The notes: a model not told the origin generated them from the letters alone. A DNA stretch of 64,000 nt from a bacterium (GCA_030647555.1 JAUSJG010000004.1:36661-100660); one strand, 5' to 3'; positions 18,842 through 44,446 are shown, counted from the stretch's first letter. Numbers and translations are program-made.

Positions 18842-19801
18842 ATGGACACAAAACAAAAACCGAGCCTTCCCCACCTGGATAAATATATTTTGCATTTGAT
18901 CACACACAACTATTCAAAAGAAACAATTTATAATTACGAAAGAGATTTGCAACTGTTGGAAAATTTTTTGAAAAATGATTTGAAAATCCCCTTCCAAAAA
19001 TTCGATAAGCAAGCATTGGAGCTTTATAAAGCCGAGTTGGTTTCGATTGATCGAAAAACGGCAAATGGAGTTACCGCGGGGGCCTCTACCCTATCGTCTC
19101 GTTCCATCAACAGGGCGCTTTCCGCTTTTCGTTCTTATTTATCATTTTTAATTGCAAATGATATTCCGTGTCCTTTACCGCGTGAAGCAGTCACATTAAT
19201 TCGAATGGAAAGACGTCACGCGCGCGTAGCCGAATTGGAAGAATTGATTCGTTTGATTGAAGCACCGACAACAATGGAAAAAAATAAAGAAATTGCGTTG
19301 CGAAATCGTGCGATACTTGAAACATTGTTTGCAACCGGAATGAGAATATCAGAACTCGTGTCATTAAATTGCGATCAAGTGGACGGAAAAGGAAAGATAT
19401 TTGTCAAAGGAAAAGGGAAAAAAGAAAGATTTGTTTATATGACGCCCAGGGCTACGGAATATGTTAATCGGTATGTGTCATTGCATAAGGACAAAAAAGG
19501 CGCGCTGTTTACCCCCCTGCGTGGCAGAAACGCAAAATCACAGAAAGCGAGAATATCAACAAACTATCTGCAAGATAAAATAAAAAAATATCGGGAGGCA
19601 CTTGGAATTGTTGTGCCAACATCGGCCCATTCCCTAAGACATGGGTTTGCTACTTATCTCGCCGAGTCGGGTGCCAACCCCGCGGCTATTCAAATATTGC
19701 TCGGCCACGAATCTTTGGAAACCACAACGAGATATGTGCATCCCTCCGACAGGTTTGCCGAAACAACGCACAAAAAATTTCACCCGCTGCAAAACATCTA
19801 A
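18842..19801 (+). CDS. tyrosine site-specific recombinase (XerC/XerD-like)
   Basis: Catalytic box HSLRHGFATYLAESGANPAAIQILLGHESLETTTRYVH containing the R..H..R..Y signature. Confidence 0.85.
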   Translation: MDTKQKPSLPHLDKYILHLITHNYSKETIYNYERDLQLLENFLKNDLKIPFQKFDKQALELYKAELVSIDRKTANGVTAGASTLSSRSINRALSAFRSYLSFLIANDIPCPLPREAVTLIRMERRHARVAELEELIRLIEAPTTMEKNKEIALRNRAILETLFATGMRISELVSLNCDQVDGKGKIFVKGKGKKERFVYMTPRATEYVNRYVSLHKDKKGALFTPLRGRNAKSQKARISTNYLQDKIKKYREALGIVVPTSAHSLRHGFATYLAESGANPAAIQILLGHESLETTTRYVHPSDRFAETTHKKFHPLQNI

Positions 19802-20105: not shown

Positions 20106-20576
20106 CTATCCTTTCGTTACGCAAACACTCGGTTCGTAACCCGCATCAATCGCCTCTTGTTCCGTTTTAAAGAAAACCAGGTTTTCTTCTTTAATACGTT
20201 TAACTTCGGCGCAACTTGTAAAATAGTATTTTGTGCCGTTTATCGACGCGGCATATTGGCCATTACCGGTTGTAGTACTATTTGTTGCATTATCGGTAGT
20301 TTCTCCTGCAACGCGTGGAAGCATACTCGCAACGGGAGTGGTTTTGGTCGCCGAGGTCAATACTGCGATATCGGCATCCGAAAACACTGATGGAACTGCG
20401 TTTGTGCCCTGAAAAACGATCGGAGACGCTTTTTTAGTCTCCGATGACCAATAACCCACCAAGTAGCCCAGAATCACCAGAAATACGCCTAAAACCCACA
20501 TAAAAACTTTGTCCTCTCGCTTGGCGGTCAATTTTTGCCATTGGTCAGTTACGCTCATGTTAAACATATGGTACAA
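20106..20576 (-). CDS. membrane-anchored protein with C-terminal Ada-like metal-binding motif
   Basis: One TM segment; C-terminus GTKYYFTSCAEVKRIKEENLVFFKTEQEAIDAGYEPSVC resembles the Ada N-terminal Zn-binding pattern. Confidence 0.35.
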   Translation of the reverse strand: MYHMFNMSVTDQWQKLTAKREDKVFMWVLGVFLVILGYLVGYWSSETKKASPIVFQGTNAVPSVFSDADIAVLTSATKTTPVASMLPRVAGETTDNATNSTTTGNGQYAASINGTKYYFTSCAEVKRIKEENLVFFKTEQEAIDAGYEPSVCVTKG

Positions 20577-20655
20577 CTATGGCTGATATTATCCCAGTAA
20601 TACAACCGTCAAGAAGTTGAAAGTATTTGTTTTTTAATATATACTCATCAATTAA

Positions 20656-21915
20656 ATGGAATACGCCTTTTTTCTTGGAAGCAACCCCGGTCTATCGGCC
20701 GTTGAGGTTCACGACTATTTTAAACGCATAAAAATTGTGGCGGATTTTGATTTAACTCGCCTGCCAAAATATTTAATAGTAAAAACCGATGAAACATTGA
20801 AGTGTCAGGCGATTATTGACGGTTTGGGCGGTACGCCGATGATCGCGCAAATAATCGGGGAATTGCCGGATTTGTCCGCCGAAACAATTATTGAAAAAAC
20901 CGGTTTGGAGAGTCGATTTTCGGAAGGACAAAAACCAATTTTCTCAATTTCTTTTGAAACACTTGGTACTTCCCTGCCCGCCTCAAAAAGTCCGCGTGAA
21001 ATTAGAACATTGGGGATAGAAATAAAAAAACTATTGAATAAAAAAGGTTGTCGTGTGGTGGTTCCGCAAATTGGAACTTCATTGAGCACCGCGCAATTAT
21101 TTAATTCAGGCGTGCCGTTTAAGGCGGTTGGTATCCACATTATTGAGCTTGAAAGTGGTCGCTATGTCGCGATGATCGTTACCGCCGTGCAAGATATTGA
21201 TTTTTACACGCGCCGTGATCGAGAGCGTCCGGAAGCCGATCCGGGCAAAGGAATGTTGCCTGTTAAACTTGCGCAAATTTTTATTAATTTTACACAAGCG
21301 GAAATCGGTTCAAAAATATATGATCCGTTTTGTGGCGCGGGTACGATTGTCGCCGAGGCCATGTTACAAGGTTTTAATGTAATAGCTACAGATATTTCTC
21401 TAAGACAAGTTGAACGCACAAAAATTAATACCGATTGGTTAAAAAACACATTTCCTAATTTAGTTGATCCGAGAAAAAACATTGTCGTTATGGCGCAAGA
21501 TATCGAAAAACCGTTACGTGAGATCGAAAACAATTCGATTGACGCGATTGCTTCCGAGGGCTGGCTAGGGCCGGCTACCAACCACGAGTTATCGGCCTTC
21601 GAGATTGAAAATGTTTTCGTGAGAACCCAACAACTGCTTTATGCCCTGCTTGCCAATGTCAGTAGCGCGCTCAAAAGTGGGGCCACAGTGGTTGTGGCAC
21701 TCCCCGCTTTTCGCGTCGATAAACGCATCGTAAGAGCGCCGTTTATGCAAGAAGAATTGCGAAAATTTTTACCAAAGGGCTACAAAGTTGAAAGCCTTGT
21801 CCCGGAAGGTTGGACAAATCCTGCCTTTCGCGACGCCGGTCAAGGAATGATGTTGTATGGTCGCCCAGACGCGGTGATTCTTAGGGATATTGTGCGAATA
21901 AGAAAAACAAATTAG
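20656..21915 (+). CDS. class I SAM-dependent RNA methyltransferase (UPF0020/Trm11-like)
   Basis: Motif I KIYDPFCGAGTIVAEA; N-terminal THUMP-like region. Confidence 0.55.
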   Translation: MEYAFFLGSNPGLSAVEVHDYFKRIKIVADFDLTRLPKYLIVKTDETLKCQAIIDGLGGTPMIAQIIGELPDLSAETIIEKTGLESRFSEGQKPIFSISFETLGTSLPASKSPREIRTLGIEIKKLLNKKGCRVVVPQIGTSLSTAQLFNSGVPFKAVGIHIIELESGRYVAMIVTAVQDIDFYTRRDRERPEADPGKGMLPVKLAQIFINFTQAEIGSKIYDPFCGAGTIVAEAMLQGFNVIATDISLRQVERTKINTDWLKNTFPNLVDPRKNIVVMAQDIEKPLREIENNSIDAIASEGWLGPATNHELSAFEIENVFVRTQQLLYALLANVSSALKSGATVVVALPAFRVDKRIVRAPFMQEELRKFLPKGYKVESLVPEGWTNPAFRDAGQGMMLYGRPDAVILRDIVRIRKTN

Positions 21916-22016: not shown

Positions 22017-22589
22017 ATGTGGCTGATTAATAATCACAGGGACATTGTTCACATACCAATGAGTATGTTAATATATAATCACATTATGGATAAGATATTA
22101 AATCACTCAATAGACGAGAGGGTATATAAAAGCGCAGTACTTTACTTCATAAAGTACTGCAACAATCAGTATTTGCACGCGACAAAACTGAACAAGCTTT
22201 TGTATTACCTTGATTTTATCTACTATCGCGATCACAAAAAATCCGTCACGGGCGACACCTATATTCACCAAGGTTACGGCCCAGTTCCGGCGCGAATAGA
22301 TGAAATACTCGCCAGTTTGAAAAATGAAGGAGTGATAGAAACGGAAGCGGTTGCTCACAATGACGCGGAAATGATTAATTTCACCGTCAAAAACGAGGCG
22401 AAATTCGACGAAGCGGTTTTTACGCCCGATCAAAAAAAACTTCTAAAACAAATTTGCGATCAGTTTGGCGGTTGGCCGACGGAAAAAATAGTCGCACAAA
22501 CGCACCTTGAAGCGCCTTGGTTTTATTCCAAACCCTACGAAATCGTGGACTATTCTTACGCGCGCGATATAGATTTTTTTCGAGAGTAA
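22017..22589 (+). CDS. Panacea (DUF4065)-domain antitoxin-like protein
   Basis: KLNKLLYYLDFIYYRDHKKSVTGDTYIHQGYGPVPARIDE matches the DUF4065/Panacea core (KLqKLLYY ... YGPV); likely start at MDKIL (~22088). Confidence 0.55.
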   Translation: MWLINNHRDIVHIPMSMLIYNHIMDKILNHSIDERVYKSAVLYFIKYCNNQYLHATKLNKLLYYLDFIYYRDHKKSVTGDTYIHQGYGPVPARIDEILASLKNEGVIETEAVAHNDAEMINFTVKNEAKFDEAVFTPDQKKLLKQICDQFGGWPTEKIVAQTHLEAPWFYSKPYEIVDYSYARDIDFFRE

Positions 22590-22598
22590 CATCGAATT

Positions 22599-22985
22599 AT
22601 GGCTTGGGTGTATGTGGAACGGGAAAACTTTGTTCGGATGTGCGAAAAGGCGGGCATTTCAATCGTAGTACGAACGGCGATTAAAACTTGGGCGCCGAGC
22701 GTAAGCAACCTATATCAGTTGGCTCGACAAAAACTGATTTATCGTTCTCCTAAAAATCGTTATGAAATTTGGGCGGCGGGAATCCCAAATCCGGACAGTA
22801 ATAGAGGCAAAAGTGGCGGTTATCGCGTCGTCTATTTTTTTGATTTAACCGAAAAAACAATCAATCTGGACTTCATAGAGGAAAGAAAAGAACTCGGCTT
22901 CAAAAACGAAGGCCAAGCAAAAAAGAATCGCTACACCGATTACGTCAACCAACTGAAAATTTCTCTAAAAAAATTGGATGTTTAG
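22599..22985 (+). CDS. RelE/HigB (Gp49-like) family toxin-like protein
   Basis: GKSGGYRVVYFFDLTEKTINLDFIEERKE resembles the G.GYRV.Y core of HigB/Gp49-family toxins; lies 9 bp downstream of the Panacea gene. Confidence 0.5.
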   Translation: MAWVYVERENFVRMCEKAGISIVVRTAIKTWAPSVSNLYQLARQKLIYRSPKNRYEIWAAGIPNPDSNRGKSGGYRVVYFFDLTEKTINLDFIEERKELGFKNEGQAKKNRYTDYVNQLKISLKKLDV

Positions 22986-23117: not shown

Positions 23118-26100
23118 TTACTTTCCTTTTTTATCTTTTTTGACATGGGTTTTTGTTACTTTCCTTTTCTTCGGTTTTGACGTCCAGTATTTGCCGGGGT
23201 TTTTATCTCTTAGTTTTTTTATAATATCCTGTGCGTCTTTATCGGTGGCCACGTATTGCTTGATAATCTCCACCAGTTTATCGCTTTCGTGAAGTTCCAA
23301 ATCTCTCGGAAAAGAAAAGAATATTTTTACGGCTTCCATAAACTTATCTTTTCCAAAATTGTCGTGCAACAGTTCCAATATCCTCGAATGATACTGAGCC
23401 GGGTACCAATAAACATTTGCCAAGTTGCCGATTTCCGCTTGTTTTTCATAAAATCCTTTTTCTACTTCAAAACACTTGATCAGCAATTGATACCACTTTT
23501 GCGCATCTTTTTGAGGCTTACTAAATTCCCGCTCCATGGTTTGATAAATGACATTAAAAATATTGCGAGCATAAATGTCAGAAAGCAATTCAAAATATTC
23601 CAAAGCAAGCTCTGTGTTTTTCGGCATTTCTTCGGGCGATCCTTCCCGCAAAGCGTGTTCGACGGATGACGCGAATCTGAAACAACTGTCAGGATCTTCT
23701 TTTTGCATTTCCTTTATGGTTTCAATCAGGATTGTTTTGAACTTTCTCTGATCATATTTCTCCGGTCCGAGATCGTCATATAAACCAGGCATGCCAAACC
23801 GCCAATTAACATATTTATTCTTTCTAAACTCTGCGTAGTAAATAAACAACGGCGCAGCTTCTTTTTTGATGTCAGCCGACAGGTTTGCTATGGCGGTCAC
23901 GAACCTTAAAGAATCCTTCTCATTCAATGCCCTGATGGGGTCAAAAACGTGCAACACGCTCTTGATTAACGATTTTTGAACCGGCGGTGGCCACGCAATG
24001 AATTTATCCAGCAAATCAAATGCAACACTTTCAATTTCTTTTGACATTCGTAGTGCCCTTTCCCTGTCGTCGTTCAAAAACAGAAGCTCTCTGTTTTCCG
24101 GCAACACGGTCAGCCGGTTGCGAGCCAGTTGGCCAAGTGGTAGGGTGGCCATTTGTATTACGTAATAATTCGGGTCGTTAACCAACTTCTTCGTCAGTTC
24201 AATCACTTCGGCCACTTGTCCTCGCCCCGAAAGTACGGCGCATTTCGTCAGCACCCACCCGCACCAACCGCGAACCGAAGCAATTGCGTTCGATTCCTTA
24301 CCTTCCAGAATACTTTTGTGTTCACTGTATTTATCTTCCGGATCGCGCGGATCTTTGCCGAGCGAATACGGGTCTGGGTCGTCGATAAAAATACGAATAA
24401 TTTTTAATGCCTCGACTATTTTTTTCTTGGTCGCCAGCCTTGCCGCGAATTGAACGAAGGCCTCGCGACAACTGGCGTTAGTCAGCCACTTGGATATTTC
24501 AGCTACATTGTCGCCGTGTTTTTTTAAGAACGGAACGACAACCTCTTTGTAAATTTTCAGTAGCAATTCTTCGTCATCGGAGTCATCGTTTCCCAAGTGA
24601 TTAAACAAAGCGTAGGAATAAATAATTTGCTGATCTTCACTGGGTTTTACCTCGTTTTCCAACAAACGAATTATCGACAAGCCGGCGACATAATCTTTTC
24701 TGATTATTTCATTCAACAGAGAGGCTACGGTATAAGCGCCAAAATGATCACTTTTTTCTTTTTTGATATAGTCGCTTGCAATAAAGGTTGTAAACAATTC
24801 AACGGCAAGTTTCAAATCAGTTTCCAGCAGTGTCTTAATGCCTGACACAACTTCGAAATCAAACATAAAACGCTCGTAATACTTTGGGTTAGAGTACCAT
24901 TTTCGCATCGTTTGTTTGGCTTGCAGAAAACCATTTTTGGCCAAATCGGTCACAATCCGTTCAACAAAGGGATTAACCGGAATGCCGTATTTTTTAACAG
25001 TCAGTTCAACCAACTTCCATTTTTTGCCGTCGGACAGAGCAATGTTGCCGGCAGACCAATAGATCAGTTCGGATTTGTGCGGAATGCCTTTTTTTAAAAG
25101 AATAAATTCTTTTAAAATCTCAAAAGCCTCGTTGGAAACATTTTCGTCCGTGTTCACATATCGGTTTATGACTATTTCACAAACCGCGCGGTTTAAAAAA
25201 TCAGGCTTGTACTTGTTTACCTCGTGTGGCATTGAGATACAACGCTCTTTGATAAATTGCCAACCCTTGGCTTTATCCTTTTCGTAATATTGATTAATGG
25301 CCGGTGTAAGAATGAAAGACACAAAATGCCGTTCATTAATGGCATATTGGCCGGAATCATAAGAAATTCCGCCACCCATATATTCCCACCCTTTGAAGTT
25401 CATTTTGCTTTTGAATTTTTCATAATATTTTTGGTATTGGGCACTCGCCATTTTTACAAATTCGTCAAACCGGCCTTCGAAATCTTCATTTAGCCATTCA
25501 CGCAATATCTCGTAAACGTCGCGGGGGGCGTGGTGGATAAATTCTCCTTCGTCTTGCGTGATATTAAACGCGGAGGCGATTAAATCAATAACTTTTTGTT
25601 TCAGGTTGCCTTCCGTGTCGCGCTCGTATATTTTTCGCGCAAGCTTGCAAATTTCTTCTTTTTCCCATTCGCCGTGTTCGTTTCCGGTATCTTTGAGATA
25701 GAAAAAATCATTTTCATTAAACATAATCAGGTCTTTCGCTATAATGAACGCGTCGTCCAGATATTCTGCACCATCCTCCCCTTCGATAATCTTTTTAACT
25801 ATCCTCACAATATCCACGTTAAAATAATCGGTTCGATAAAAACCACGAATCATTTTTGTGTATTTTTTAATATAGCTCAATATATACTTTCGATTTTTGT
25901 CTGTATGTAAATTGTTTTCGAAAATATAAAAGATTCCGAAGTTAAATGCATAGATCCTATTTAATTTCCAAACAGGATCCCAGTTTTTTAGAACCAACTC
26001 GTTATGTTTATTTTCCAGCCTATCTTTCGCAAACTTTAATCGTTCATAATCGGTTGAAAATGCAGAAAGCTCTTTTGGCACTTGCCATATACCATGGTTC

Positions 26101-26840
26101 GGATTACTTAATGCTCTTTCGAGTTCCCAGAATTGTTGCTCCCTTTTGCTTAGTTGCTCGTTGTAATAAACACTATTTTGCCTTGTTTCAACAGCAATGT
26201 TATTTATTTCTTTCAGAATATCTATTCGGGAATATGTGTCACCGACAGCCGACCCGATATAAATTTTTTGCACAAGGATGCTATCTGAGATTCTTTTAAT
26301 GTCTTCTTCCGATAACCAAAAGTTTAACAGATCGGTAAAAAGGGAATAAATTGTTTTTTGTATAAATCCAGATTTTATATGCCAAAACCTAACCCTAGGA
26401 AGTAAACTAATCATTGCCGCGGAATACCCTTTTTCCTTAAATTGATCTTTTACACCATCCCAATAACGAGAATTTTCAACGCGGGAAATTAATTCTGTAT
26501 TAACATTAGTGCAAACGATCAGTATCTCGTCGGCGTCTGCGACTTCTTTGCTTGCTACCACCTTAGTCAGAAACTCTTTTAAATGTGCGTAATTAAAAGG
26601 CTTTTTTCTATCTTTTGATTCACAAATTATTCTTTTACCATCATTAAAAACTAGATTGAAATCTTCAAACCCCTGGGCTTCAAGGTGAATATGTGAAAAA
26701 TTTGGATCGCGTAAAAACTGCAGAAATAACGACATGGCAGCCCATGCCTGTGTATTAATTCCTTTATAGTTGCTTTGTCCTGCTCTGCCCATAAGATTAT
26801 TTAAACTCAAGGTAAAAATGAATTCCATTGTCCGACCCAA
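23118..26840 (-). CDS. 1240-aa alpha-helical protein with N-terminal PD-(D/E)xK / Cap4(DUF4297)-like nuclease-like domain; defence-island component
   Basis: N-terminus GRAGQSNYKGINTQAWAAMSLFLQFL ... EDFNLVF ... ICESKDRKK fits a D...E.K nuclease signature; no Walker A anywhere; Lys-rich C-terminal tail; start overlaps the upstream gene by 44 bp. Confidence 0.5.
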   Translation of the reverse strand: MGRTMEFIFTLSLNNLMGRAGQSNYKGINTQAWAAMSLFLQFLRDPNFSHIHLEAQGFEDFNLVFNDGKRIICESKDRKKPFNYAHLKEFLTKVVASKEVADADEILIVCTNVNTELISRVENSRYWDGVKDQFKEKGYSAAMISLLPRVRFWHIKSGFIQKTIYSLFTDLLNFWLSEEDIKRISDSILVQKIYIGSAVGDTYSRIDILKEINNIAVETRQNSVYYNEQLSKREQQFWELERALSNPNHGIWQVPKELSAFSTDYERLKFAKDRLENKHNELVLKNWDPVWKLNRIYAFNFGIFYIFENNLHTDKNRKYILSYIKKYTKMIRGFYRTDYFNVDIVRIVKKIIEGEDGAEYLDDAFIIAKDLIMFNENDFFYLKDTGNEHGEWEKEEICKLARKIYERDTEGNLKQKVIDLIASAFNITQDEGEFIHHAPRDVYEILREWLNEDFEGRFDEFVKMASAQYQKYYEKFKSKMNFKGWEYMGGGISYDSGQYAINERHFVSFILTPAINQYYEKDKAKGWQFIKERCISMPHEVNKYKPDFLNRAVCEIVINRYVNTDENVSNEAFEILKEFILLKKGIPHKSELIYWSAGNIALSDGKKWKLVELTVKKYGIPVNPFVERIVTDLAKNGFLQAKQTMRKWYSNPKYYERFMFDFEVVSGIKTLLETDLKLAVELFTTFIASDYIKKEKSDHFGAYTVASLLNEIIRKDYVAGLSIIRLLENEVKPSEDQQIIYSYALFNHLGNDDSDDEELLLKIYKEVVVPFLKKHGDNVAEISKWLTNASCREAFVQFAARLATKKKIVEALKIIRIFIDDPDPYSLGKDPRDPEDKYSEHKSILEGKESNAIASVRGWCGWVLTKCAVLSGRGQVAEVIELTKKLVNDPNYYVIQMATLPLGQLARNRLTVLPENRELLFLNDDRERALRMSKEIESVAFDLLDKFIAWPPPVQKSLIKSVLHVFDPIRALNEKDSLRFVTAIANLSADIKKEAAPLFIYYAEFRKNKYVNWRFGMPGLYDDLGPEKYDQRKFKTILIETIKEMQKEDPDSCFRFASSVEHALREGSPEEMPKNTELALEYFELLSDIYARNIFNVIYQTMEREFSKPQKDAQKWYQLLIKCFEVEKGFYEKQAEIGNLANVYWYPAQYHSRILELLHDNFGKDKFMEAVKIFFSFPRDLELHESDKLVEIIKQYVATDKDAQDIIKKLRDKNPGKYWTSKPKKRKVTKTHVKKDKKGK

Positions 26841-27885
26841 AATCCGATGCGGTCAATTCTCTTATTGGCAAACTGGCTAAAAGTAAATGCCTGGGTGGAC
26901 ATACAAAGGAAACGATTCCCTGCGGATGCGAAAGACAGAAATCTTTTATACTGGCAAATAAGCAACGTCCAGCTGGGTCTATTTTTTTGAACAGATTAAT
27001 TAAATCAGCTTTTTTTCCATCAACTATTTTCGAATATTGCTTTTTATTGAAAATTTTACTCTCTCCGATTGACGTTTTTTCTACAGTTTCAAGTTCGGGA
27101 GATGTCCCCGTGCTAAGAAAATCATTCTTTGTTGGAGTAATAACATATGGATAAGTATTAATTGAAAGCGCAACCACCTCATTTCTAGAAAAAGTATACT
27201 GTTGAGTATTTATGCCAAAAACAAAGTTGGGAGGGGTGCCTGGGTTAGTAAGACGAATTTCCTCAATTTTTATATGTAAAACATCGTCAACTAATAAACT
27301 GTGTTTTGCCTCCCTCTCTCTTACATAAGAACGTCTATGTAGATAACCATCGACCGATTCTTTTTCTAATTCTTTTTGGATTACTGATATTATTTCATTG
27401 TGTTTAGTTTTATCACTATTTGATGCATTGGGAAAAATCTCGTTTGCATCGATAATATTTAAATGAGGGATTTTATCCTTCAAGAAATCAAAATCCCATA
27501 TACTAATTTTGAAAGGAAATTTGTTTATAACATTTAAACTTGTTAACCTTTCGGAAAATATTGTATTACTTTTATATCTTTTATGAGGGATAAAAATACA
27601 ATATACATCCGGGTAATAGCTACTCCCCATAGACATTAGCTCTAAAATCTTATCGCTAAAATCAGATAGCTCTACTTCTAAAACATCGCTATAATTATGA
27701 TTGTGTTTTTGGCGATTGAGATCTTTACATTCGAATTTCCAAAAATATTCCTTTCCTTGTATTTTAAAATTAGCATAGGCATCATACCCATTCTGTAGTC
27801 CTGAACGATTAGGCCAATATAAGGGCGTGAAAAGGTTCCTCATTATATTCGCCAAGTTATTTTCTAATTGTTGACCCTTGCTCAT
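26797..27885 (-). CDS. restriction-endonuclease-like protein (PD-(D/E)xK-like N-terminus)
   Basis: GYDAYANFKIQGKEYFWKFECKDL fits a D..(E)xK pattern; its ATG overlaps the MTase stop by 4 bp. Confidence 0.4.
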   Translation of the reverse strand: MSKGQQLENNLANIMRNLFTPLYWPNRSGLQNGYDAYANFKIQGKEYFWKFECKDLNRQKHNHNYSDVLEVELSDFSDKILELMSMGSSYYPDVYCIFIPHKRYKSNTIFSERLTSLNVINKFPFKISIWDFDFLKDKIPHLNIIDANEIFPNASNSDKTKHNEIISVIQKELEKESVDGYLHRRSYVREREAKHSLLVDDVLHIKIEEIRLTNPGTPPNFVFGINTQQYTFSRNEVVALSINTYPYVITPTKNDFLSTGTSPELETVEKTSIGESKIFNKKQYSKIVDGKKADLINLFKKIDPAGRCLFASIKDFCLSHPQGIVSFVCPPRHLLLASLPIRELTASDFGSDNGIHFYLEFK

Positions 27886-30800
27886 ATATTTACTTTTTCA
27901 TTGCCCTCAACAATTTTTATTTCCTCATTTGTTAAGTCGTAGAGACTATACACCAACGCATCTATTTGGCGTTCAAAGTCCTGGATCTTAGCTTGTTTTT
28001 CGGCGTTTACTAAATAGTCGTTAGATTGAATCACCTTTTGTATATTGTCTTCGAGAGCAATAAAATCAAGTTGAATATTATTCTCAAGTACTGCCTGCGG
28101 AATGGGTATTTGCTGGATGTAAAAGTCATACAAGTGCATTGTTCTTATTGCCCGTGCGTAGATGAAATTGTATGCATACCAATTTACAAAGCTGGAATTA
28201 AGATAAGAAAGCCAAAATTTTGACGACAATTTATCATCTAACGCAAAAGACATCAGCGTGTTAGTGATAATTATTCCTTCGGCATCATAGCAAGCTGTTA
28301 ACTTTATATGTGGCTTTGGATTATCAATATGTGCAACTAAAACTTGCGCTATAACTTTTGGTTTTAAAAATTTTTTGGCTGAATCCCAATTCAATTTTGA
28401 TTTATTTTTTAACCACCTATTAGATTTTATTTTCCATCGAGCGATATCTATGCCCTTTAAAAGTTTATAATCGGTTTGTTTATCAGAGAAAAAGTCTGTT
28501 CCAATAGCAAGACCCAATCTCCCCTTAACAAGGTGTTCGTTTGTTTTTGCGTCCTGAATTTTTTGCCAAAGCGTTTTAGAGATAAGCAATTTATAGATTT
28601 GGGCTGTACCATTTTCCGCAAATATTTCGGCCTTATGTCCTGATGCAAACTCAAAAACAACATCGTTCTTATTCAAATAAGAACATCTCACTTTATCATT
28701 AGAGCTGTTTTTCACTAAACCAAAAGCATTAGCCTCAAGTAACACTTCGTCAAACGCCTTACTTGAGTCAAGCAAAAACCTAAGATTATATTTCAACCAA
28801 TACTCTTTCCTGAATCCATCCCACGCATCACCATACAGTGATTTCTTGGGGATTATGAAAGTTAAAATACCGTTCGGTCTAACTAAATTGTTAAATGATT
28901 TTTTACAAAATAATTCAGCACTGTCACCACTACTAAACTCAATATTTTCTATTTTTCGATAATATGTTTTTTGTTCTGAAGTCAAAACATTTCTAAAACC
29001 ATACGGCGGATTTCCGATTACCACGTCAAATCCTTCTTTAATGCCGAACATAAACAACGGATCGAAAAATTCGGCACTGGAGTCGGAATTAAACGGATCG
29101 TAGGACAATAATTGTTCCTGTCGTTTTGATTTTTTGGTTTTTATTATTGACCCTTTGCCATTACCTTTTAATAAATCCGCAAAATCTTGCTTCATTTTTT
29201 CCTTAATATTCCGACTGCTGGAGGTGAAATAACGATCCCTAATCGTCCGCATTTTTTCTTCCAGCTTATCGTGATCCCAAATAGAAGTTTGGCCGTTGGG
29301 CGCCAAGGGAATTAAGCTGTTGGCGCAAACAAATTTAAATTCCAAATTTGGCAACGGATCAATACCCATATTCTGCCTATCCGGCAAAATCGGCTCGTCT
29401 ACCACCAGTGAAAGCCAAGCGCGCAGGCGCGATATTTCCACCGCCATCGGCTCGATATCCACGCCGAAAATGTTTTTCTCAATAATTCCCAGTTTTGTTT
29501 TGTAACTATCAAACCGACTTTCAATGCGATCATAAACCGTGGAGATTAATTGCATCATCCCAATTGGAAATGCTCCGGAGCCACAAGCAGGATCGAGAAT
29601 TTTCATTTCATCCAACGCGGAGACCAATTTTGCTTTATAGGGAGCGATGTCGCGTCGATCATTTTTTGAGTCAAACTCGTGCTCTTTTTTATCTAACAAT
29701 AATGACAATAATTTTTCTTTGCGTTCATCTTCGCCCAGTTTTTCTGACAAAAACGCTCGCAAGCTTTCTTTGCACATATATTCCACAATTTCACGCGGTG
29801 TATAGAAAGCGCCTTTCGCTTTGCGCGCCTGCTTGCCGGTTTCGTCCGTAATTTCTGCGAGCAAGTTTTCAAAAATCCTGCCCAACATTTCCGGATCAAT
29901 TGCCACTTGCTGAAAATCGCTGGTAGATTCGTCGGTGGTGAAATGGTAGCCATTTAAGAAGGCATAGAACCGCTGGAAAAAATCGGCCGGAAAAGTGAGT
30001 AGAGGGTCGCCATTGAGATCAGAATCCTTCGGTTCAAATAAACCGCCGTTCAGAAATGGAGTTTTAGCGTCTGTTGGAAAAAGGGTTTTCGCGCCCTCCT
30101 TTTTTCCAAACAGCGTTGCGTCAATTTTGTCCGCGTTTTTTTCGCGCTCGTCCATTGGCGTATTAAGCGTGCGGAAAAATAGCAATTCGAGTTTTGAATG
30201 ATAATAATTGGTGGCATCCGTACTAGAAGCGTCAAAATAGCCATACTGCTCCGAAATTATCCCCTTTTTGCGGAGAAACCAGCAGAAAATCAATCGGCCA
30301 ATTAAGCGCGTGGCAAATTGCCGGCGATGATCGCCTGCCAGGATATTTTTGTTTTCCAAATGTTGGAGTAGCTCGGTAAAAAAGCGTGAGATTTCTTTGT
30401 AGAATTCTTTATTAAGCGGACGAATATCGAAGCTATCCCATAAAATGTGATGGACTTGCGCCTTATTGGTAAAATCAAAACTCTGGAGCCAGTGGTTAAA
30501 AATTGTTTTTTGGGTGTTGGATAGTTTTCCATCCAGTTCTAACGTGCGGATTTTATAGTTGTTGCTTAAAACAATAATCAGCTTGTCCGCTTTATCGGAT
30601 ACCACAAAATCAATCCCGACATTTTTATTCGCGTAAATTTTTTCATCCTCAAAATTCGGGGTTAAGGTAACCAGATTGGCAATTACTTTTTTTGACGGTT
30701 TTTGCGCCCAAAATAACTTAAAATCAATGCCGTAATCCTTCTCTGTTTCCAGTGCGTAACTGGCTTTTCGATCCGCGAATTCCGGCGCGTTTTTCACCCA

Positions 30801-30989
30801 GCCCGGGTGCGCTTTCAGTTGTTTAAATTGACGTAATGTTGGTGTTGCAGAGACCACACCGAGCATAGACACAATCTCTTTTGCCACGGAAAACACATCG
30901 TTTAGATTTCCGCTCTTCTTGGCGCTCTGAAGGGCGTCGTCAATTTTGGAAAAGACTTCGTCGGCGTGATTATTTATTTTCACGGGCAT
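27882..30989 (-). CDS. gamma-class N6-adenine DNA methyltransferase (Eco57I/MmeI/PglX-like), 1035 aa
   Basis: GAFYTPREIV (motif X), ILDPACGSGAFP (motif I, SAM-binding), VVIGNPPYG (motif IV); large C-terminal region is probably the target-recognition domain. Confidence 0.85.
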   Translation of the reverse strand: MPVKINNHADEVFSKIDDALQSAKKSGNLNDVFSVAKEIVSMLGVVSATPTLRQFKQLKAHPGWVKNAPEFADRKASYALETEKDYGIDFKLFWAQKPSKKVIANLVTLTPNFEDEKIYANKNVGIDFVVSDKADKLIIVLSNNYKIRTLELDGKLSNTQKTIFNHWLQSFDFTNKAQVHHILWDSFDIRPLNKEFYKEISRFFTELLQHLENKNILAGDHRRQFATRLIGRLIFCWFLRKKGIISEQYGYFDASSTDATNYYHSKLELLFFRTLNTPMDEREKNADKIDATLFGKKEGAKTLFPTDAKTPFLNGGLFEPKDSDLNGDPLLTFPADFFQRFYAFLNGYHFTTDESTSDFQQVAIDPEMLGRIFENLLAEITDETGKQARKAKGAFYTPREIVEYMCKESLRAFLSEKLGEDERKEKLLSLLLDKKEHEFDSKNDRRDIAPYKAKLVSALDEMKILDPACGSGAFPIGMMQLISTVYDRIESRFDSYKTKLGIIEKNIFGVDIEPMAVEISRLRAWLSLVVDEPILPDRQNMGIDPLPNLEFKFVCANSLIPLAPNGQTSIWDHDKLEEKMRTIRDRYFTSSSRNIKEKMKQDFADLLKGNGKGSIIKTKKSKRQEQLLSYDPFNSDSSAEFFDPLFMFGIKEGFDVVIGNPPYGFRNVLTSEQKTYYRKIENIEFSSGDSAELFCKKSFNNLVRPNGILTFIIPKKSLYGDAWDGFRKEYWLKYNLRFLLDSSKAFDEVLLEANAFGLVKNSSNDKVRCSYLNKNDVVFEFASGHKAEIFAENGTAQIYKLLISKTLWQKIQDAKTNEHLVKGRLGLAIGTDFFSDKQTDYKLLKGIDIARWKIKSNRWLKNKSKLNWDSAKKFLKPKVIAQVLVAHIDNPKPHIKLTACYDAEGIIITNTLMSFALDDKLSSKFWLSYLNSSFVNWYAYNFIYARAIRTMHLYDFYIQQIPIPQAVLENNIQLDFIALEDNIQKVIQSNDYLVNAEKQAKIQDFERQIDALVYSLYDLTNEEIKIVEGNEKVNI

Positions 30990-33900
30990 ATAACAATAAT
31001 GATTGGGCTTGATTAGGAATAATAATCGTCTCTTCTTCGGCTACAGCCTCGCGAGCCAGGGCTATCAGTTCTTTAAGGTTATCATTATACGGCTTTTGGT
31101 TTCGGTGCGCCTTCGCGACATCTCTCACAAGATTATCCATTTTACTGTTGAGCAAGTGATTGTGGGTGTTAAAAGCATTACCCACCAGATCTATTTCCTC
31201 CAGCGTGTAATTATGGTCGTGCATAATCCGCAATATCATCGCTTTTTGCCCCGTCGGCAATGACGCTTCTTCGTTGCCGATCGAGAAATTTGTCGGTATG
31301 TCGGCCACCTCTTTCAGTTTAATCTTATCAAGAGTTAGCTTATCGACATCCCTGCGATTGTCGGTTTCATTGGTTCTAATTAATCGTAAAGCTTCCAGGA
31401 CCGGCATAGCGCTACGCTCCTCGCCGTTTCGGTTCATTTTAATGAATTGAGGTATCAGTTTTTCATGGTCTTTGTAAAGTTCGCTTAATGCTAAAACCTC
31501 CGGCAATAATTCATCCTTTTTCGTTGGTAAAACAGCCCACTTGCCTTTTGGGATGTTATAAATTGACTGCTTGTATTCTTCTGTTTTTTCCGTGTCATTC
31601 GCAAACTGTTTCAAATCGTGCACAAAGTCGTCTTCGGCAAGTAAAAAGTCACCTGCTTCTTCAGCGAGCTGATAAGCCCTAAGCCTCTTTTGTTCGTCGT
31701 CGCTGTAAATCTCAATAAACTCCATCGGGTTAGCTGTTTCCCCCAGCACCGACTGATCAATTCCGATTGTGCTATTAATTAATTCAATTTTTCCCTCCAA
31801 TCTTTTTACCAGTCTTAAATATGCCTCTAGTTTTTTATCGGGGCTCATATTAAAAATAATTATTTTCGCGTATTCCGATCCAAGCCGGTTCACGCGCCCG
31901 TTGCGTTGTATCATACGCACGGGATTCCAGTGCAGGTCATAATTAATAATTGTTCCGCAGTCTTGCAGATTTTGCCCTTCAGAGAGAATATCTGTTGAAA
32001 ACAAATAACGCAATTCACCCTTGTTTTTATCGCATTGCTTGTAATGTTTGGCAATTGGCGCGAAACGTCCCGCAAGGTCTGTCGCCTCGTCACGATTTTT
32101 TCCAGTAAGAAAGCCTGCGTTTGTTTCATTCACCAAACCACCCGACGCGACTTGTATGTTTGCTTTTAAATATTCCACAGTATCAGAAAAGTAAGAAAAT
32201 ACCAGTACTTTTTCCCCCGCCGGTTTTGTTTTGTTCAGCTCCACTAAAACATTTGCCAACTTGGCCAATTTTGTGTCGCCTTGTTTAAACAACAAAAGAC
32301 AATCTGAAATAATCTTTATAATTTCTTTTTCCATGGTTATGTCTTTCTTAAATGCCTCCACGTTGTATTTGTTTTCATCTACCTCGTCTTGAACATGCTT
32401 TTCCAAAAGTTCGGCATCCACATCACTCAAATCTTCCTCGTCTTCATCACGCATCGCGTCACACAGAACATCAAGATCTTTCATTGCTAATATTTTTTCT
32501 TGCTTAAGCCCCTTTTCAAACATAACGAGATTGTTTTCGTATTTTTTCAATGATTTTTCGATGGCGTACACTGAAGATTCCATGCGTTTTAAAAAGATAG
32601 TGCGAAAAATGCCGTAAATGCCACGTTGTTGTTGGAGCGCTTTGCTTTGTTCGGCAGGCAAACGCATTTCTTTTATTTGTTCTTTGGTTTTTCCATAATA
32701 TCTTGTTTGATAAATACGCCACCGATACGGAATAAAGCCCAACATCAGAATCATTTGATATACAAAATAAACGGGAGATTCATTAGTCAGATCAGCTTCT
32801 GAATAAACTCGCTCCGCCAGTTCCAGTTGATCCAAAGGATGCATAAGCATACTGCATTTTTCCACGATATCCTCGGGTTTCCTGCTGTAAACAGACAACA
32901 AATCAATCTGTTGTGACTTGTTCTCCATAATTTTTTTGGTCATTTCCGGTGGCAAATGATAATTGGCGTTTTGGGGATCTGCCTTGGGAAATTCGTATTC
33001 TTTTCCGTTTATAATTAGTTTTCCGTATTCTTTTTCAATACCCTGACGCGTTCGACGCACAACAAGGGTGCGAATAATCGGAGCCATGATTTGCTTAATT
33101 TCTGCATAATCCGGCATTTCCTCTTTATTAAGTTTGCGATTGATTTTATTTTGCAAATCAGCTACGGCCTGAAAAAAATCTTTCATCTCGCTTTGTCCGG
33201 TTTTCCGATCAACAGTCATCACCTTATCCACAACATCCCCTCTGCCTCTTGTGCCAAGTATCAGCTGTCTACTTAAGTCTTGAATTTCGTTATTGATTGG
33301 TGTGGCGGTTAATAAAAGCACATCAGCTTTTTTGTTATTTCTAATCCAATTTAATAACGCATTGTATCTGGTACCGCCGGTTTTTCTTAGGTTATGTGAT
33401 TCATCAACAACAAACAACGACACAGAAGCCAAATCATCAAGTTTTTGCTCTTCTTTCATTGCGTTAATATTTTGAAGGATCACGGGTTTCAGATGCATCA
33501 CACCGGAGTTTATTAATTCTGCTTTCCATTGTTCCTCCAATGACTTCGGACATACCACGATTACCCGCTTCTTACCCTCCTCACTATCAAGATAATGTTT
33601 CATAACTTCGATTGCCGTGTATGTTTTTCCCAACCCCACCGAATCGGAAAGCATCGCTACGTGATATTTTTCCAGCTTTCTAAGTAACTGTTGAACATTT
33701 CTTTTTTGGAATTCCATTAACTCATAACTTTTATCCGTACTTTCCTTGAGAGCAACATCCTCTAGTTCGTCTTTGTAGAGTTCGTAAAGGGTTTTTATGT
33801 ATGTTTCATATGGACTGAATAATACGTCGCCAACAGGAGACATTTCCAGAATCTCAATAAATTTTCCGTTCCAATTTTCCGTTGTCGGGTCATTCCATAA

Positions 33901-34452
33901 TTGATCAAACCAAAACAAGTGCCCCACTTCTTGTTGCTCCGATTGCGGTTGAAAGGTTACAATCCGCGAGTCCTCTTCGATATCATTTAATTCCGTATTC
34001 ACCGTTAGACCATTTTTGGTAAAATTTGACGAGCCGATTATGCCAACCGCTTCATTTGATTTATAATCGCCAAAAACATAACACTTGGCGTGTAAAAATG
34101 TTTTTCGATAGACTTTAACTTCCAGTTTTCCCGCGCTGATTAATGCTTTTATTTGAATTACAACTTCCTTGAGTTTTTTGTCTTGAATAATATTTTCTAA
34201 ATCGTGAAAAATATCCTTGTCTGGAAAATCCGGTTCTGGGGCACTTATTGCGTGTCGAGGAATAAGGGGTTCGCGTCCTATCAATAATCGGATTTTATCC
34301 AAATTTTTTATTTTATCAATAAGCAGAGCGGTGCCGGGCAAATCCCAATAGCCTGTCGCTATTGATACTTGTTTGAAGTTTGGCATTATCTCGCAAATTA
34401 CATCTGCGAGTTTGTGTCTGCTATTGTCGATAATTTGGGGTATTTTAGGCAT
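30970..34452 (-). CDS. PLD-family nuclease domain fused to SNF2/SF2 helicase, 1160 aa
   Basis: N-terminal HKD motif (HAKCYVFGD ... GSSNFTKNG); helicase motifs I DSVGLGKTYTA, II VVDESHNLR, III LLLTATPINN, VI QRNGRVNRLGS. Confidence 0.85.
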   Translation of the reverse strand: MPKIPQIIDNSRHKLADVICEIMPNFKQVSIATGYWDLPGTALLIDKIKNLDKIRLLIGREPLIPRHAISAPEPDFPDKDIFHDLENIIQDKKLKEVVIQIKALISAGKLEVKVYRKTFLHAKCYVFGDYKSNEAVGIIGSSNFTKNGLTVNTELNDIEEDSRIVTFQPQSEQQEVGHLFWFDQLWNDPTTENWNGKFIEILEMSPVGDVLFSPYETYIKTLYELYKDELEDVALKESTDKSYELMEFQKRNVQQLLRKLEKYHVAMLSDSVGLGKTYTAIEVMKHYLDSEEGKKRVIVVCPKSLEEQWKAELINSGVMHLKPVILQNINAMKEEQKLDDLASVSLFVVDESHNLRKTGGTRYNALLNWIRNNKKADVLLLTATPINNEIQDLSRQLILGTRGRGDVVDKVMTVDRKTGQSEMKDFFQAVADLQNKINRKLNKEEMPDYAEIKQIMAPIIRTLVVRRTRQGIEKEYGKLIINGKEYEFPKADPQNANYHLPPEMTKKIMENKSQQIDLLSVYSRKPEDIVEKCSMLMHPLDQLELAERVYSEADLTNESPVYFVYQMILMLGFIPYRWRIYQTRYYGKTKEQIKEMRLPAEQSKALQQQRGIYGIFRTIFLKRMESSVYAIEKSLKKYENNLVMFEKGLKQEKILAMKDLDVLCDAMRDEDEEDLSDVDAELLEKHVQDEVDENKYNVEAFKKDITMEKEIIKIISDCLLLFKQGDTKLAKLANVLVELNKTKPAGEKVLVFSYFSDTVEYLKANIQVASGGLVNETNAGFLTGKNRDEATDLAGRFAPIAKHYKQCDKNKGELRYLFSTDILSEGQNLQDCGTIINYDLHWNPVRMIQRNGRVNRLGSEYAKIIIFNMSPDKKLEAYLRLVKRLEGKIELINSTIGIDQSVLGETANPMEFIEIYSDDEQKRLRAYQLAEEAGDFLLAEDDFVHDLKQFANDTEKTEEYKQSIYNIPKGKWAVLPTKKDELLPEVLALSELYKDHEKLIPQFIKMNRNGEERSAMPVLEALRLIRTNETDNRRDVDKLTLDKIKLKEVADIPTNFSIGNEEASLPTGQKAMILRIMHDHNYTLEEIDLVGNAFNTHNHLLNSKMDNLVRDVAKAHRNQKPYNDNLKELIALAREAVAEEETIIIPNQAQSLLLYARENK

Positions 34453-34559
34453 TGATAATCACTAATTCTCAAAAAATTATTTCAAAGACTATGCAATTAA
34501 ATTACTCTCATTGGACGGTATAATCAACCATTCTGTATGTAGTATTTGGCATATTGGAG

Positions 34560-34799
34560 CAACAGACACCTCCTGTATCAAAGTCTTGTCTTGTTCTTTG
34601 ACAACAACCGGTGGTTTTTGTTACATTTCCAACTGAAGCATGCAATAATACCTTAAGAGGCGCTGGGGTGTTCCCTCGGAGATTCCGGGGCTTAAGCTCC
34701 AGATAACCACCTCTCAAGACGCTGCTTCTACTAGAAGATGATAAATTTGGATCGGGGCGTCCCCGGTCGGCAAGGGGTCCCGCAAGGGACTTTTTGTTA
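34560..34799 (+). ncRNA. candidate small structured RNA ending in an intrinsic terminator (identity unresolved)
   Basis: 515-bp gene-free interval with GC-rich paired segments (GGGGCGUCCCCGG ...); perfect terminator GGUCCC-GCAA-GGGAC + UUUUUGUU at 34776-34799. Confidence 0.3.
34775..34799 (+). terminator. rho-independent terminator
   Basis: ggtccc gcaa gggac followed by tttttgtt. Confidence 0.6.
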
Positions 34800-34967
34800 T
34801 TATGGGAATACTTTGTATCCATATCCATCAACCTTTCCGTTGTTGGAAATGGCTACTTCTGATACCCATATACTACATACCAAATACAAGATACTCCGTG
34901 CGCTGGACAAAATTCTTATTATCGTTTAATCTGCTTAAGTCAATTAAAGTAATCATTTCTCACCCAT

Positions 34968-42981: not shown

Positions 42982-44109
42982 TTAATACCAACCCATTCCT
43001 ACCACTAACACGCCCGGATCTGTTTTAACGTCCAAAATTGCTTTTCCGGCAATATCAAATATTTGTAATCCTTTCACGTCGTAGCTAAAAAAGTTTTCCG
43101 ACACGGCCGGCAGTGTGGGAGAAATCAACAGCGCGGGTGCCTCAAAAACTTTCGTCACTTGATTTGTGTGATTGTCAAAATATGCCAAGGAATGATCCAG
43201 CATCAAAAATAGTCGATTATCACCGGACCAGTTTAGTTGAAGATTGCTGATCGAATCGTTGATTTGTACAGGTGTCACCTTCTTTGTTGCAAGATCAAAG
43301 ATAAAAGGAGTTAAGTTGGCAGGCCAATCCTTGTGTTTTCCCGCATAAAATGCCAAATACCTGCCATTTTGCGATAAGTTGGTATTAAATTCGACCGCCT
43401 CATTTTTGTGGATAAAGATTCGTTCAATTTCGCCATTGGTGTTATTAATTTTATTCAAAAAAAGTGAGTTGTATACCAACTTGGTCGGATCGTTCGGATT
43501 CACGGAATCTTCCGTAAAGCCTTGGTAAATGTACTCGGCATCGTTCGGAATTAGAAGTTCGTTCAGCATTGCGCTTCCCTTTATGATGTCTTTGGAGAAA
43601 ATGATTCTGCCGTCGTTGGTATCATTTTTTTTAATGTTCTGGTTTTGACCATTTATCGTACTCATCATGATTGAGTGGTCGAATTTGTTTACTGCCCAAC
43701 TGTTGGAATGTTCAGACGTTTCAAAAATAAGCGTTGGGGCGGTTTGGTTCCAACCGATTTTGTAGAAACGCGAAAAACTGGTGCCATCCTTGTTCATTGG
43801 CGCGCCATCATATTCAGATTGGCCTTTTGTTAAATAGAAAATTTCATTTGTTTCTGGATTGTATTGCACCGGGTAAGAAAATTGACTGCTGGAAAGATAA
43901 TCAGAAACCGGTACGGATTTACTTGCCGTGACTCGTTTTGTTATGACATCAATCAGCTGGATTTCCAGCGTATTCTCTGTTTTTGTTGCGACAAAAAGGA
44001 TGCTTTTTGCAACAGTTACCTTCCCCACCCTCAAAAAAATAGCCCCGGCAAGAATGCCAAAAACGATGATAGTTAATATAGAAATTGTGCGAGAAGTGAG
44101 TATTTTCAT
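42982..44109 (-). CDS. hypothetical membrane-anchored extracytoplasmic protein (possible beta-propeller)
   Basis: N-terminal TM segment, N/S/T-rich, no catalytic motif. Confidence 0.4.
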   Translation of the reverse strand: MKILTSRTISILTIIVFGILAGAIFLRVGKVTVAKSILFVATKTENTLEIQLIDVITKRVTASKSVPVSDYLSSSQFSYPVQYNPETNEIFYLTKGQSEYDGAPMNKDGTSFSRFYKIGWNQTAPTLIFETSEHSNSWAVNKFDHSIMMSTINGQNQNIKKNDTNDGRIIFSKDIIKGSAMLNELLIPNDAEYIYQGFTEDSVNPNDPTKLVYNSLFLNKINNTNGEIERIFIHKNEAVEFNTNLSQNGRYLAFYAGKHKDWPANLTPFIFDLATKKVTPVQINDSISNLQLNWSGDNRLFLMLDHSLAYFDNHTNQVTKVFEAPALLISPTLPAVSENFFSYDVKGLQIFDIAGKAILDVKTDPGVLVVGMGWY

Positions 44110-44430: not shown

Positions 44431-44446
44431 CGCCCACCAAGAATCG
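44431..44446. repeat. 16-bp exact duplicate of the tRNA-Lys 3' end (att-like scar)
   Basis: cgcccaccaagaatcg is identical at 44431-44446 and 44612-44627. Confidence 0.6.

Follow-up and report, generated by a model that had tools for sequence, protein, structure and literature searches.

We analysed a 64,000-nucleotide stretch of bacterial DNA (GCA_030647555.1 JAUSJG010000004.1:36661-100660), referred to below as the window, in which four co-directional genes on the minus strand form an operon between positions 23118 and 34452. Numbered in the order of transcription, gene 1 encodes a PLD nuclease domain fused to a SNF2 helicase, gene 2 an N6-adenine methyltransferase, gene 3 a small candidate nuclease, and gene 4 a protein of about 1,200 aa in which a Cap4-type nuclease head is carried on a long alpha-solenoid. 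An original prediction, made from the sequence of the window, had taken these genes for a single four-component defence system with a DISARM-like composition. With moderate confidence, we favour another reading: the operon is a composite of a two-gene restriction unit and a separable cassette of genes 3 and 4, the two being co-transcribed and the cassette being a candidate second-line immune nuclease.

Organization of the operon

A listing of the open reading frames (ORFs) in the window returned the four genes with the same coordinates as originally predicted (Table 1). The overlaps proposed for the first two junctions, of 20 and 4 bp, were also recovered. At the 20-nt overlap of genes 1 and 2, the start Met of gene 2 is conserved in 49 homologues, and an identical 20-nt overlap occurs in the distant homologous loci L042, L044, and L045. 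At the 4-nt overlap of genes 2 and 3, M1 of gene 3 is kept without exception in 13 homologues. The third overlap, of 44 bp, turned out to be an artefact of taking the longest ORF, in which gene 4 is extended to an upstream TTG. The start of the gene 4 family falls on M17 of this ORF, and this column is invariant in alignments of 20 and of 49 sequences. Judged by these alignments, the true start is probably the ATG at 26792, 4 nt past the TAA stop of gene 3, while the NCBI start call is M5 (1236 aa). Genes 3 and 4 are still closely packed after the revision.

Table 1 Features of the operon and of its flank on the gene 4 side
Feature	Position in the window	Strand	Remarks
Gene 1, ORF	30970-34452	minus	1160 aa
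Gene 1, PLD/HKD nuclease domain	33958-34371	minus	aa 28-165; single HKD motif
Gene 1, SNF2/SF2 helicase core	31726-33726	minus	aa 243-909
Gene 2, ORF	27882-30989	minus	1035 aa
Gene 2, methyltransferase core	28764-29891	minus	aa 367-742
Gene 2, TaqI_C-like specificity domain	28101-28466	minus	aa 842-963; AT-rich
Gene 3, ORF; class C partner of the solenoid protein	26797-27885	minus	362 aa; candidate PD-(D/E)xK-type nuclease
Gene 4, longest ORF	23118-26840	minus	1240 aa
Gene 4, start revised to M17	23118-26792	minus	1224 aa; constant core of the cassette
Gene 4, Cap4/DUF4297-type nuclease head	26133-26792	minus	ORF aa 17 to ~236
Gene 4, HEAT/ARM-like alpha-solenoid	23118-26132	minus	~1,000 aa; basic C-terminal tail
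Tyrosine recombinase (Xer/phage-integrase family)	18842-19801	plus	Pfam Phage_integrase 1.4e-34
SocA/Panacea antitoxin-like gene and 128-aa ORF	22017-22985	plus	Pfam SocA_Panacea 2.3e-18; convergent with gene 4

Genes 1 and 2

The fusion of a PLD (HKD) nuclease to a SNF2 helicase, as originally predicted for gene 1, agrees with Pfam, which reports PLDc_2 (6e-9) and the PLD family RE_NgoFVII (2.4e-5) together with SNF2-rel_dom (5.6e-13), ResIII (1.8e-12), and Helicase_C (1.4e-14). The best match in the defence libraries is the PADLOC model 'C3a139 HKD+Snf2' (6.7e-49). All NCBIfam matches (DrmD, a PLD anti-phage protein, and DpdE) lie far under their cut-offs. By sequence, the helicase core matches the SNF2, INO80, and RapA motors in the PDB. 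The HKD region reads FLHAKCYVFGD...GIIGSSNFT. Across 19 homologues, there is no variation in the HKD residues (H121, K123, and G140-S-S-N143) or in helicase motifs I, II, III, and VI; the residues concerned include G273-x-GKT277, D350-E-S-H353, and Q849..R853. The family is very large: of the candidates that were scored, 5,771 proteins have E < 1e-30.

Gene 2 is a gamma-class N6-adenine methyltransferase of the Eco57I/MmeI type, and here too Pfam is in line with the prediction: the matches are Eco57I (4.5e-27), N6_Mtase (2.9e-12), MmeI_Mtase (8.1e-9), and TaqI_C (6.9e-10). PADLOC assigns the protein to REase_MTase_IIG (5.4e-129). Motif I and the NPPY motif (aa 660) are intact, and the sole PDB sequence match of the core is the BREX protein PglX (8c45, 1.7e-8, aa 368-523). 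No nuclease-domain match was found for gene 2 in Pfam. Its first 200 residues form a conserved region in 49 homologues, yet no conserved (D/E)xK triad is present there. Hence, the nuclease of the pair is likely supplied by gene 1.

The relation of the two genes to each other and to gene 4 was followed in a survey of 84 loci seeded with gene 1 (four look-ups and 80 metagenome loci). A gene 2 homologue follows in all 49 close full-length gene 1 homologues for which downstream sequence is available, and the junctions mostly range from -26 to +5 nt. A gene 4 homologue is absent from all 84 loci, 23 of which extend at least 2.5 kb past gene 2. In the reverse direction, gene-1-like and gene-2-like genes were found upstream of a gene 4 homologue in only two of 36 loci seeded with gene 4. 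The complete pairing and the absence of gene 4 from the 84 loci argue that genes 1 and 2 are self-contained, and on the sequence evidence the pair is a common two-gene restriction-modification-like unit.

The gene that follows the pair elsewhere (L042-L100) is variable and often tightly coupled. Such third genes encode, for example, a type VI secretion system Tle1-like hydrolase (L042), a DUF3644 protein (L044), and unknown proteins with lengths of 105-755 aa. Accessory genes in general seem to dock at the 3' end of operons of this type. In two metagenome loci, L062:6659-9616 and L095:4-2580, the only stops in the gene 1 frame are TGA codons (23 and 6, respectively), with no TAA or TAG. The hosts of these loci probably read UGA as sense (code 4 or 25) and have the same PLD-SNF2 and methyltransferase pair.

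Gene 4 and its family

Neither gene 3 nor gene 4 has a match in Pfam, NCBIfam, PADLOC, or PHROGs, and profile and sequence searches against PDB sequences returned nothing for either protein. The AlphaFold model of gene 4 is a confident one (pLDDT 87.8), in which an alpha/beta head gives way to helical repeats over about 1,000 residues. The fold of the head is that of the Cap4-type effector nucleases, i.e., Cap4, Avs3, LmuA, and HamA. The putative catalytic residues are E54, D60, and K76, which do not vary in the alignments of 20 and 49 sequences, and E74, with a conservation of at least 90% there. In Foldseek searches against the PDB, the solenoid matches only generic HEAT/ARM proteins, e.g., CAND1, importins, and RRP12, and several family members have Pfam matches to HEAT, HEAT_2, and Cnd1. 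We found no Walker A motif in gene 4 and no NTPase-domain match in Pfam, family members included. The model and the motif scan are thus in accordance with the original description of an alpha-helical protein with a Cap4-like head and no ATPase motif. The head belongs to the Cap4-type nuclease fold, but for the whole protein no described family fits. A full-text literature search found no description of a nuclease-HEAT protein or restriction add-on protein that matches the gene 4 family.

A word-indexed search yielded 185 homologues, all of about 1,200 aa. Their hosts are mostly Patescibacteria, but also Legionella, Deltaproteobacteria, Margulisbacteria, and Armatimonadetes. In an exhaustive search, performed as single-sequence phmmer against 1.84 billion cluster representatives, gene 4 had 317 matches at E <= 1e-3, of which 158 were at E <= 1e-30. 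Among INPHARED phages, PLSDB plasmids, and IMG/VR, no member of the family was detected. One homologue (L037:10007-13611), located in a metagenome-assembled genome (MAG) of the Deltaproteobacteria (UBA10199), is split into at least four ORFs and is probably a pseudogene.

Gene 3 and the exchange of partners

In nearly all of the 36 non-redundant loci of the gene-4-seeded survey, the gene 4 homologue is abutted by a co-directional upstream gene of 190-370 aa, often with a 4-nt overlap. These partners belong to four mutually unrelated classes. Class A (12 loci) is Cap4_nuclease-like, with a member in L007 that matches PF14130 (5.5e-7); class B (9 loci) is SLFN/AlbA_2 (PF04326); class C (3 loci and the window) is gene-3-like; and class D (4 loci) is weakly Mrr-like. 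The partner in one more locus has a weak CHAT match, and in three or four loci no partner could be recognised. The class of the partner does not track the gene 4 phylogeny: it is shared by only 7 of 30 nearest neighbours. L012 and L013, for example, have near-identical gene 4 proteins (distance 0.08) with partners of class C and class B, respectively. The head of gene 4 is itself homologous to the class A partners (hhalign 94.7%, E 5.7e-8).

For gene 3, the class C partner in the window, only 13 homologues were found, three of which lie immediately upstream of gene 4 homologues (L012, L029, and L041). E8, D35, E52, and K54 are invariant in all 13. The original prediction had proposed a PD-(D/E)xK-like N-terminus for this protein; the E/D/K motif proved to be conserved, and the libraries gave no match for the protein. 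From the motif, gene 3 is a candidate PD-(D/E)xK-type nuclease.

Several natural fusions and truncations in the family link heads, partners, and solenoid. Solenoid-only proteins of about 940-1,020 aa are represented by at least 17 cluster representatives in the exhaustive search, and the one in L128 has a class A partner encoded upstream (E 1.1e-10). In P0317 and P0346, a gene-3-like domain is present instead of the Cap4 head (class C profile, E 4.4e-18 and 6.2e-18, respectively). P0351 has a class A head on the solenoid (E 4.6e-41), and in P0306 an XRE-type helix-turn-helix precedes a full-length protein. Hence, the solenoid is a constant core on which both heads and partners can be swapped as modules. 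The case for gene-3-type partners working together with the solenoid is made most strongly by these Rosetta-stone fusions.

Genomic neighbourhood of the cassette

Of the gene 4 loci, 29 have upstream sequence of 3.9 kb or more. In 15 of these 29, co-directional restriction-type genes are located directly upstream, and the gap between the last restriction gene and the partner is often < 60 nt. The upstream genes are of Type I (L009, L011, L013, L038, and L041) or Type III (L010, L017, and L021, with a Mod-like gene in L029), or they encode complete Type IIG enzymes (L022 and L026), a PLD-SNF2 protein and a methyltransferase (L034 and L039), a small methyltransferase (L005), or an Mrr-helicase (L001). 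GmrSD and a KAP NTPase adjoin some of the cassette loci; in L021, the order is Type III, GmrSD, partner, and gene 4. ParB-methyltransferase, terminase, or serine-recombinase genes lie within 10 kb in 14 gene 4 loci.

Homologues of all four genes do occur together outside the window, as the original prediction needed them to: L034 (Gammaproteobacteria) and L039 (Elusimicrobia) contain a gene-1-like gene, a gene-2-like gene, a partner, and gene 4. The window and these two loci all differ from one another in the class of the third gene, which fits repeated docking of the cassette and not a fixed four-gene system.

Some further genes near the cassette were observed repeatedly. A trio of genes for a ParB-domain DNA methyltransferase and the small and large terminase is found by the cassette in L012, L032, L033, L034, L036, and L041, mostly in divergent orientation to it, and indicates prophage or phage-like elements in those MAGs. 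Two unknown families, of about 360 and 178 aa, recur near gene 4, mostly directly downstream of it (L009, L012, L013, and L028; also in L026, L034, and L041). Neither of them is present in the window, and neither has a Pfam or PHROGs match. In L039:2131-3165, a gene for a YhcG/DUF1016 PD-(D/E)xK nuclease separates the gene-1-like from the gene-2-like gene.

Flanks and base composition

The original prediction had placed the operon in an island-like position, between a tyrosine recombinase with a toxin-antitoxin module on one side and core genes on the other. This corresponds to the annotation of the flanks, with the recombinase and SocA/Panacea on the gene 4 side and pyrG and rplI on the gene 1 side. 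In full, the gene 4 side has a glycosyltransferase gene, the tyrosine recombinase gene, a methyltransferase-like gene, and the SocA/Panacea pair, and the gene 1 side has pyrG, rplI, and ctpA. The SocA/Panacea-like gene encodes 190 aa, and the neighbouring 128-aa ORF weakly matches a PHROG of unknown function; the two are a possible toxin-antitoxin pair. The methyltransferase-like protein (419 aa) matches PADLOC 'mad2' (1.3e-14) and Type II methyltransferase models. Its gene is adjoined in divergent orientation by a 156-aa ORF with an Ada zinc-binding domain, both within 20106-21915, and no cognate nuclease of the methyltransferase was identified. For the remaining 35 ORFs of the window with a length of 120 aa or more, PADLOC gave no match at a threshold of 1e-5. 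Upstream of gene 1, a 107-aa ORF (34508-34831) with a TTG start, low complexity, and no family match is probably not a gene.

Promoter and terminator scans between 22.5 and 35.5 kb gave counts not above the shuffled expectation, and a search for att-like direct repeats around the island yielded only short chance matches. The GC content is 0.331 in gene 3 and 0.343 in the 3' part of gene 2, compared to 0.41 in the rest of gene 2. Positions 26797-28650, which hold gene 3 and the specificity end of gene 2, are thus more AT-rich than the rest of the operon (~0.39-0.41), consistent with recently exchanged modules. At 44000-47000, the GC content rises to 0.50-0.52 (window mean 0.41). An rRNA was ruled out for this stretch, as Rfam reports only a tRNA-Lys (44610-44682); outside the tRNA, it consists of one ORF of 495 aa.

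Proposed function of the two modules

Given its domains, intact catalytic motifs, and obligate pairing, module 1 (genes 1 and 2) would most likely be a two-subunit, ATP-dependent restriction-modification unit similar to a split Type ISP or CglI system. We infer the following division of labour and cleavage mechanism. Gene 2, apparently without a nuclease of its own, would read a DNA site via its TaqI_C-type domain and methylate adenine, which marks self DNA. The SNF2-type motor of gene 1 would translocate on unmodified DNA, and the PLD (HKD) nuclease would cut it.

Module 2 (genes 3 and 4) combines a nuclease fold and conserved catalytic residues with modularity, fusions, and recurrent genomic associations. 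It would be a mobile cassette with the gene 4 solenoid as its core and a nuclease head in cis, usually of the Cap4 type, to which a small upstream-encoded nuclease-like or nucleic-acid-binding protein is usually added, here gene 3. Heads and partners would be exchangeable. The solenoid may act as an NTPase-free sensor or scaffold that holds the nuclease or nucleases inactive until an infection cue arrives. Co-expressed with restriction systems, the cassette would then provide a second-line, probably abortive, back-up in case restriction fails. Its defence activity, trigger, and targets are what we infer here. This logic would be similar to DSR2 and Avs, in which an effector head is placed on long repeats; different from Avs, there is no NTPase switch, and both the nuclease heads and the partners are exchangeable. 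A more specific form of the proposal appears rather unlikely to us: the solenoid would be an undescribed NTPase-free immune scaffold or sensor with exchangeable heads in trans or in cis (Cap4-type, class A, or gene-3-like), for which restriction-modification operons of whatever type would serve as selective docking points at their 3' ends. As a generic back-up, it would fire upon evasion or inhibition of restriction, and the cue could be, e.g., anti-restriction proteins or unrestricted phage DNA or proteins.

Several points weigh against the composite reading. The neighbourhood sample comprises 36 loci, mostly from MAGs of Patescibacteria, a group rich in restriction genes. About half of the gene 4 loci have no adjacent restriction genes, which makes a strict functional dependence on restriction unlikely. 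The gene 4 family has no annotated precedent, be it in PADLOC or among the phage, plasmid, and viral collections named above. The term 'sensor' for a solenoid with generic HEAT/ARM matches is an analogy, the nuclease call for gene 3 is a tentative one made from its conserved motif, and defence by either module is proposed from the features given here. Finally, the four genes are tightly packed in the window, and functional cross-talk between the modules may occur.

The tight packing in one direction is also what speaks for all four proteins being one integrated DISARM-like or BREX-like system, with genes 3 and 4 as obligate subunits that replace, e.g., DrmA and DrmB. The recurrence of the gene order in L034 and L039 and the partial matches of gene 1 to DrmD and of gene 2 to DrmMI and PglX point in the same direction. 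We nevertheless consider such a system very improbable, since gene 1 is paired with gene 2 in all 49 cases and is accompanied by gene 4 in none of the 84 loci, while gene 4 also follows Type I, III, and IIG operons or stands without restriction genes. These counts do not bear out the single four-component system of the original prediction. Its further proposal, that genes 3 and 4 replace DrmA and DrmB, found no support: the class of the third gene differs among the three four-gene loci, and gene 4 has neither helicase nor DUF1998 features.

If genes 3 and 4 are a separate cassette, it could still be a dedicated guard of restriction systems that senses anti-restriction proteins (DNA mimics) or restriction failure and then fires its nucleases, similar to PrrC, which is latent with EcoprrI and activated by the T4 Stp peptide. 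The cassette follows restriction operons of at least four types in the same direction, in 15 of 29 loci and often within 60 nt, restriction-linked second-line nucleases have precedents in PrrC (PMC1484252) and RloC (PMC3458546), and the large surface of the solenoid could bind DNA or DNA mimics. We regard a dedicated guard as unlikely, because about half of the loci lack adjacent restriction genes and gene 4 is highly conserved across restriction types that do not track the gene 4 tree; specific contacts with so different enzymes are improbable. Quite improbable is also a non-immune role of the cassette, i.e., as a module with which mobile elements or prophages achieve maintenance, addiction, or DNA processing, or as a hitch-hiking phage counter-defence factor. 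The terminase, ParB-methyltransferase, or serine-recombinase genes near 14 loci would fit this role, as would the small size of the family (317 cluster representatives), its concentration in Patescibacteria MAGs, and the missing match in the defence database PADLOC. However, the fold of the head is that of the dedicated immune effector nucleases Cap4, Avs3, LmuA, and HamA, the swapping of effector-type heads and partners is typical of defence systems, the neighbours are restriction systems, GmrSD, and KAP NTPase, and the family was not detected in phage and viral collections.

The composite of a restriction unit and a cassette thus remains our preferred reading. It corrects a tempting mis-annotation, as the operon would be a common PLD-SNF2/methyltransferase restriction unit with an add-on and not a new four-gene DISARM-like system. 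The family of about 1,200 aa with a Cap4 head, a solenoid, and swappable partners is a candidate new immune module. Its docking on Type I, III, IIG, and PLD-SNF2 operons and the partner-solenoid fusions provide a handle on the organization of layered defence, especially in Patescibacteria, which, according to PMC6509639, rarely encode CRISPR-Cas. If the defence role is true, the solenoid would be a further case of effector/sensor modularity without an NTPase switch.

Comparison with known systems

DISARM class 1 (PMC9142583) is similar to genes 1 and 2 in that it comprises a SNF2 helicase, a PLD nuclease, and an N6-adenine methyltransferase, and there are partial HMM matches of gene 1 to DrmD and of gene 2 to DrmMI. 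However, the DISARM core consists of DrmA and DrmB (DUF1998) (PMC9142583), and this core is lacking in the window: a DUF1998/DrmB match is absent in all four proteins, and the single match of the DrmA model is gene 1 (3e-23), where the match lies in the shared helicase core and is weaker than the HKD+Snf2 and DrmD matches of the same protein. Gene 1 is also far under the DrmD cut-offs, with 150.7 bits for NF038317 (cut-off 610) and 87.8 bits for NF038318 (cut-off 950). DrmC was not found as a separate protein; gene 1 carries its PLD domain together with the helicase in one chain, and NF038319 gives an E-value of 0.16. Concerning BREX, the methyltransferase core and specificity domain of gene 2 are of the same type as in PglX and in the Type IIG enzymes (MmeI/Eco57I). 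The best PglX model in NCBIfam, NF033452, gives 85.9 bits for gene 2 versus a cut-off of 500, and no match to PglZ or BrxC/PglY was found in the operon or elsewhere in the window. Apart from the DrmA match in the helicase core of gene 1, none of the DrmA, DrmB, PglZ, and BrxC models matches any of the window's 44 larger ORFs, and the original statement that no canonical DISARM or BREX system matches is upheld. Two other candidates were rejected. BREX-related (BR) systems are centred on DUF499 (Rakesh & Krishnan 2026; PMC12839542), for which the four proteins have no match, and the restriction-like system 'Ambrosia' (bioRxiv 2025.09.30.679545) has an unrelated gene set.

As in Type IIG enzymes, gene 2 has methyltransferase and recognition domain in one polypeptide; the N-terminal PD-(D/E)xK domain of these enzymes appears to be missing, judged by the lack of a conserved (D/E)xK motif and of a nuclease match in Pfam. 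Type ISP enzymes (LlaGI/LlaBIII type) are single polypeptides with an Mrr-type nuclease, a superfamily 2 (SF2) motor, a gamma-class N6-adenine methyltransferase, and a single recognition domain. The set of activities is the same in genes 1 and 2, but these are split into two polypeptides with a conserved junction, and the nuclease is of the PLD type. SauUSI resembles gene 1 in that a single polypeptide comprises a PLD-family nuclease, a motor of the SF2 helicase-like type, and a C-terminal domain. However, SauUSI targets modified (5mC/5hmC) DNA via its own recognition domain and without a methyltransferase partner, whereas gene 1 is always paired with a methyltransferase. CglI and NgoAVII (PMC4267653, PMC5737866, PMC4267654) combine a PLD-family nuclease, an SF2 helicase-like ATPase, and a methyltransferase, as do genes 1 and 2, and the RE_NgoFVII match of the gene 1 PLD domain links it to this type. 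In CglI and NgoAVII, the nuclease is a protein distinct from the ATPase and is also the subunit by which the site is recognised, whereas gene 1 fuses nuclease and motor, and the specificity probably resides in the methyltransferase subunit.

The head of gene 4 has the Cap4 endonuclease fold as well as the conserved acidic residues and the lysine. In contrast to the Cap4-type effectors (CBASS Cap4, Avs3, Lamassu LmuA, and Hachiman HamA), gene 4 has no SAVED domain, STAND NTPase, or SMC/helicase partner, and its head is joined to about 1,000 aa of HEAT-like solenoid. For CBASS, with its SAVED/CARF nucleotide sensor and CD-NTase operon, neither such a sensor domain in gene 4 nor a PADLOC CBASS match in the window was found. 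For Avs/STAND, gene 4 has no Walker A motif or NTPase match, and the model is all-helical past the head. DSR2 (PMC11263360) consists of a Sir2 effector and a helical/HEAT-repeat sensor region that binds the phage tail tube protein. Gene 4 is similar in having an N-terminal effector on long, NTPase-free helical repeats with a total of roughly 1,000-1,200 aa, but its head is a Cap4-type nuclease and not a Sir2 NADase. PrrC-EcoprrI and RloC (PMC1484252, PMC3458546) are, like the cassette, second-line nucleases genetically linked to a restriction-modification locus. They are, however, ABC-ATPase anticodon nucleases in Type Ic loci and have no relation in sequence or fold to gene 3 or gene 4. The building blocks, i.e., restriction unit, Cap4 nuclease, and repeat scaffold, are thus known, whereas the architecture of the cassette is undescribed and its genomic behaviour distinctive.

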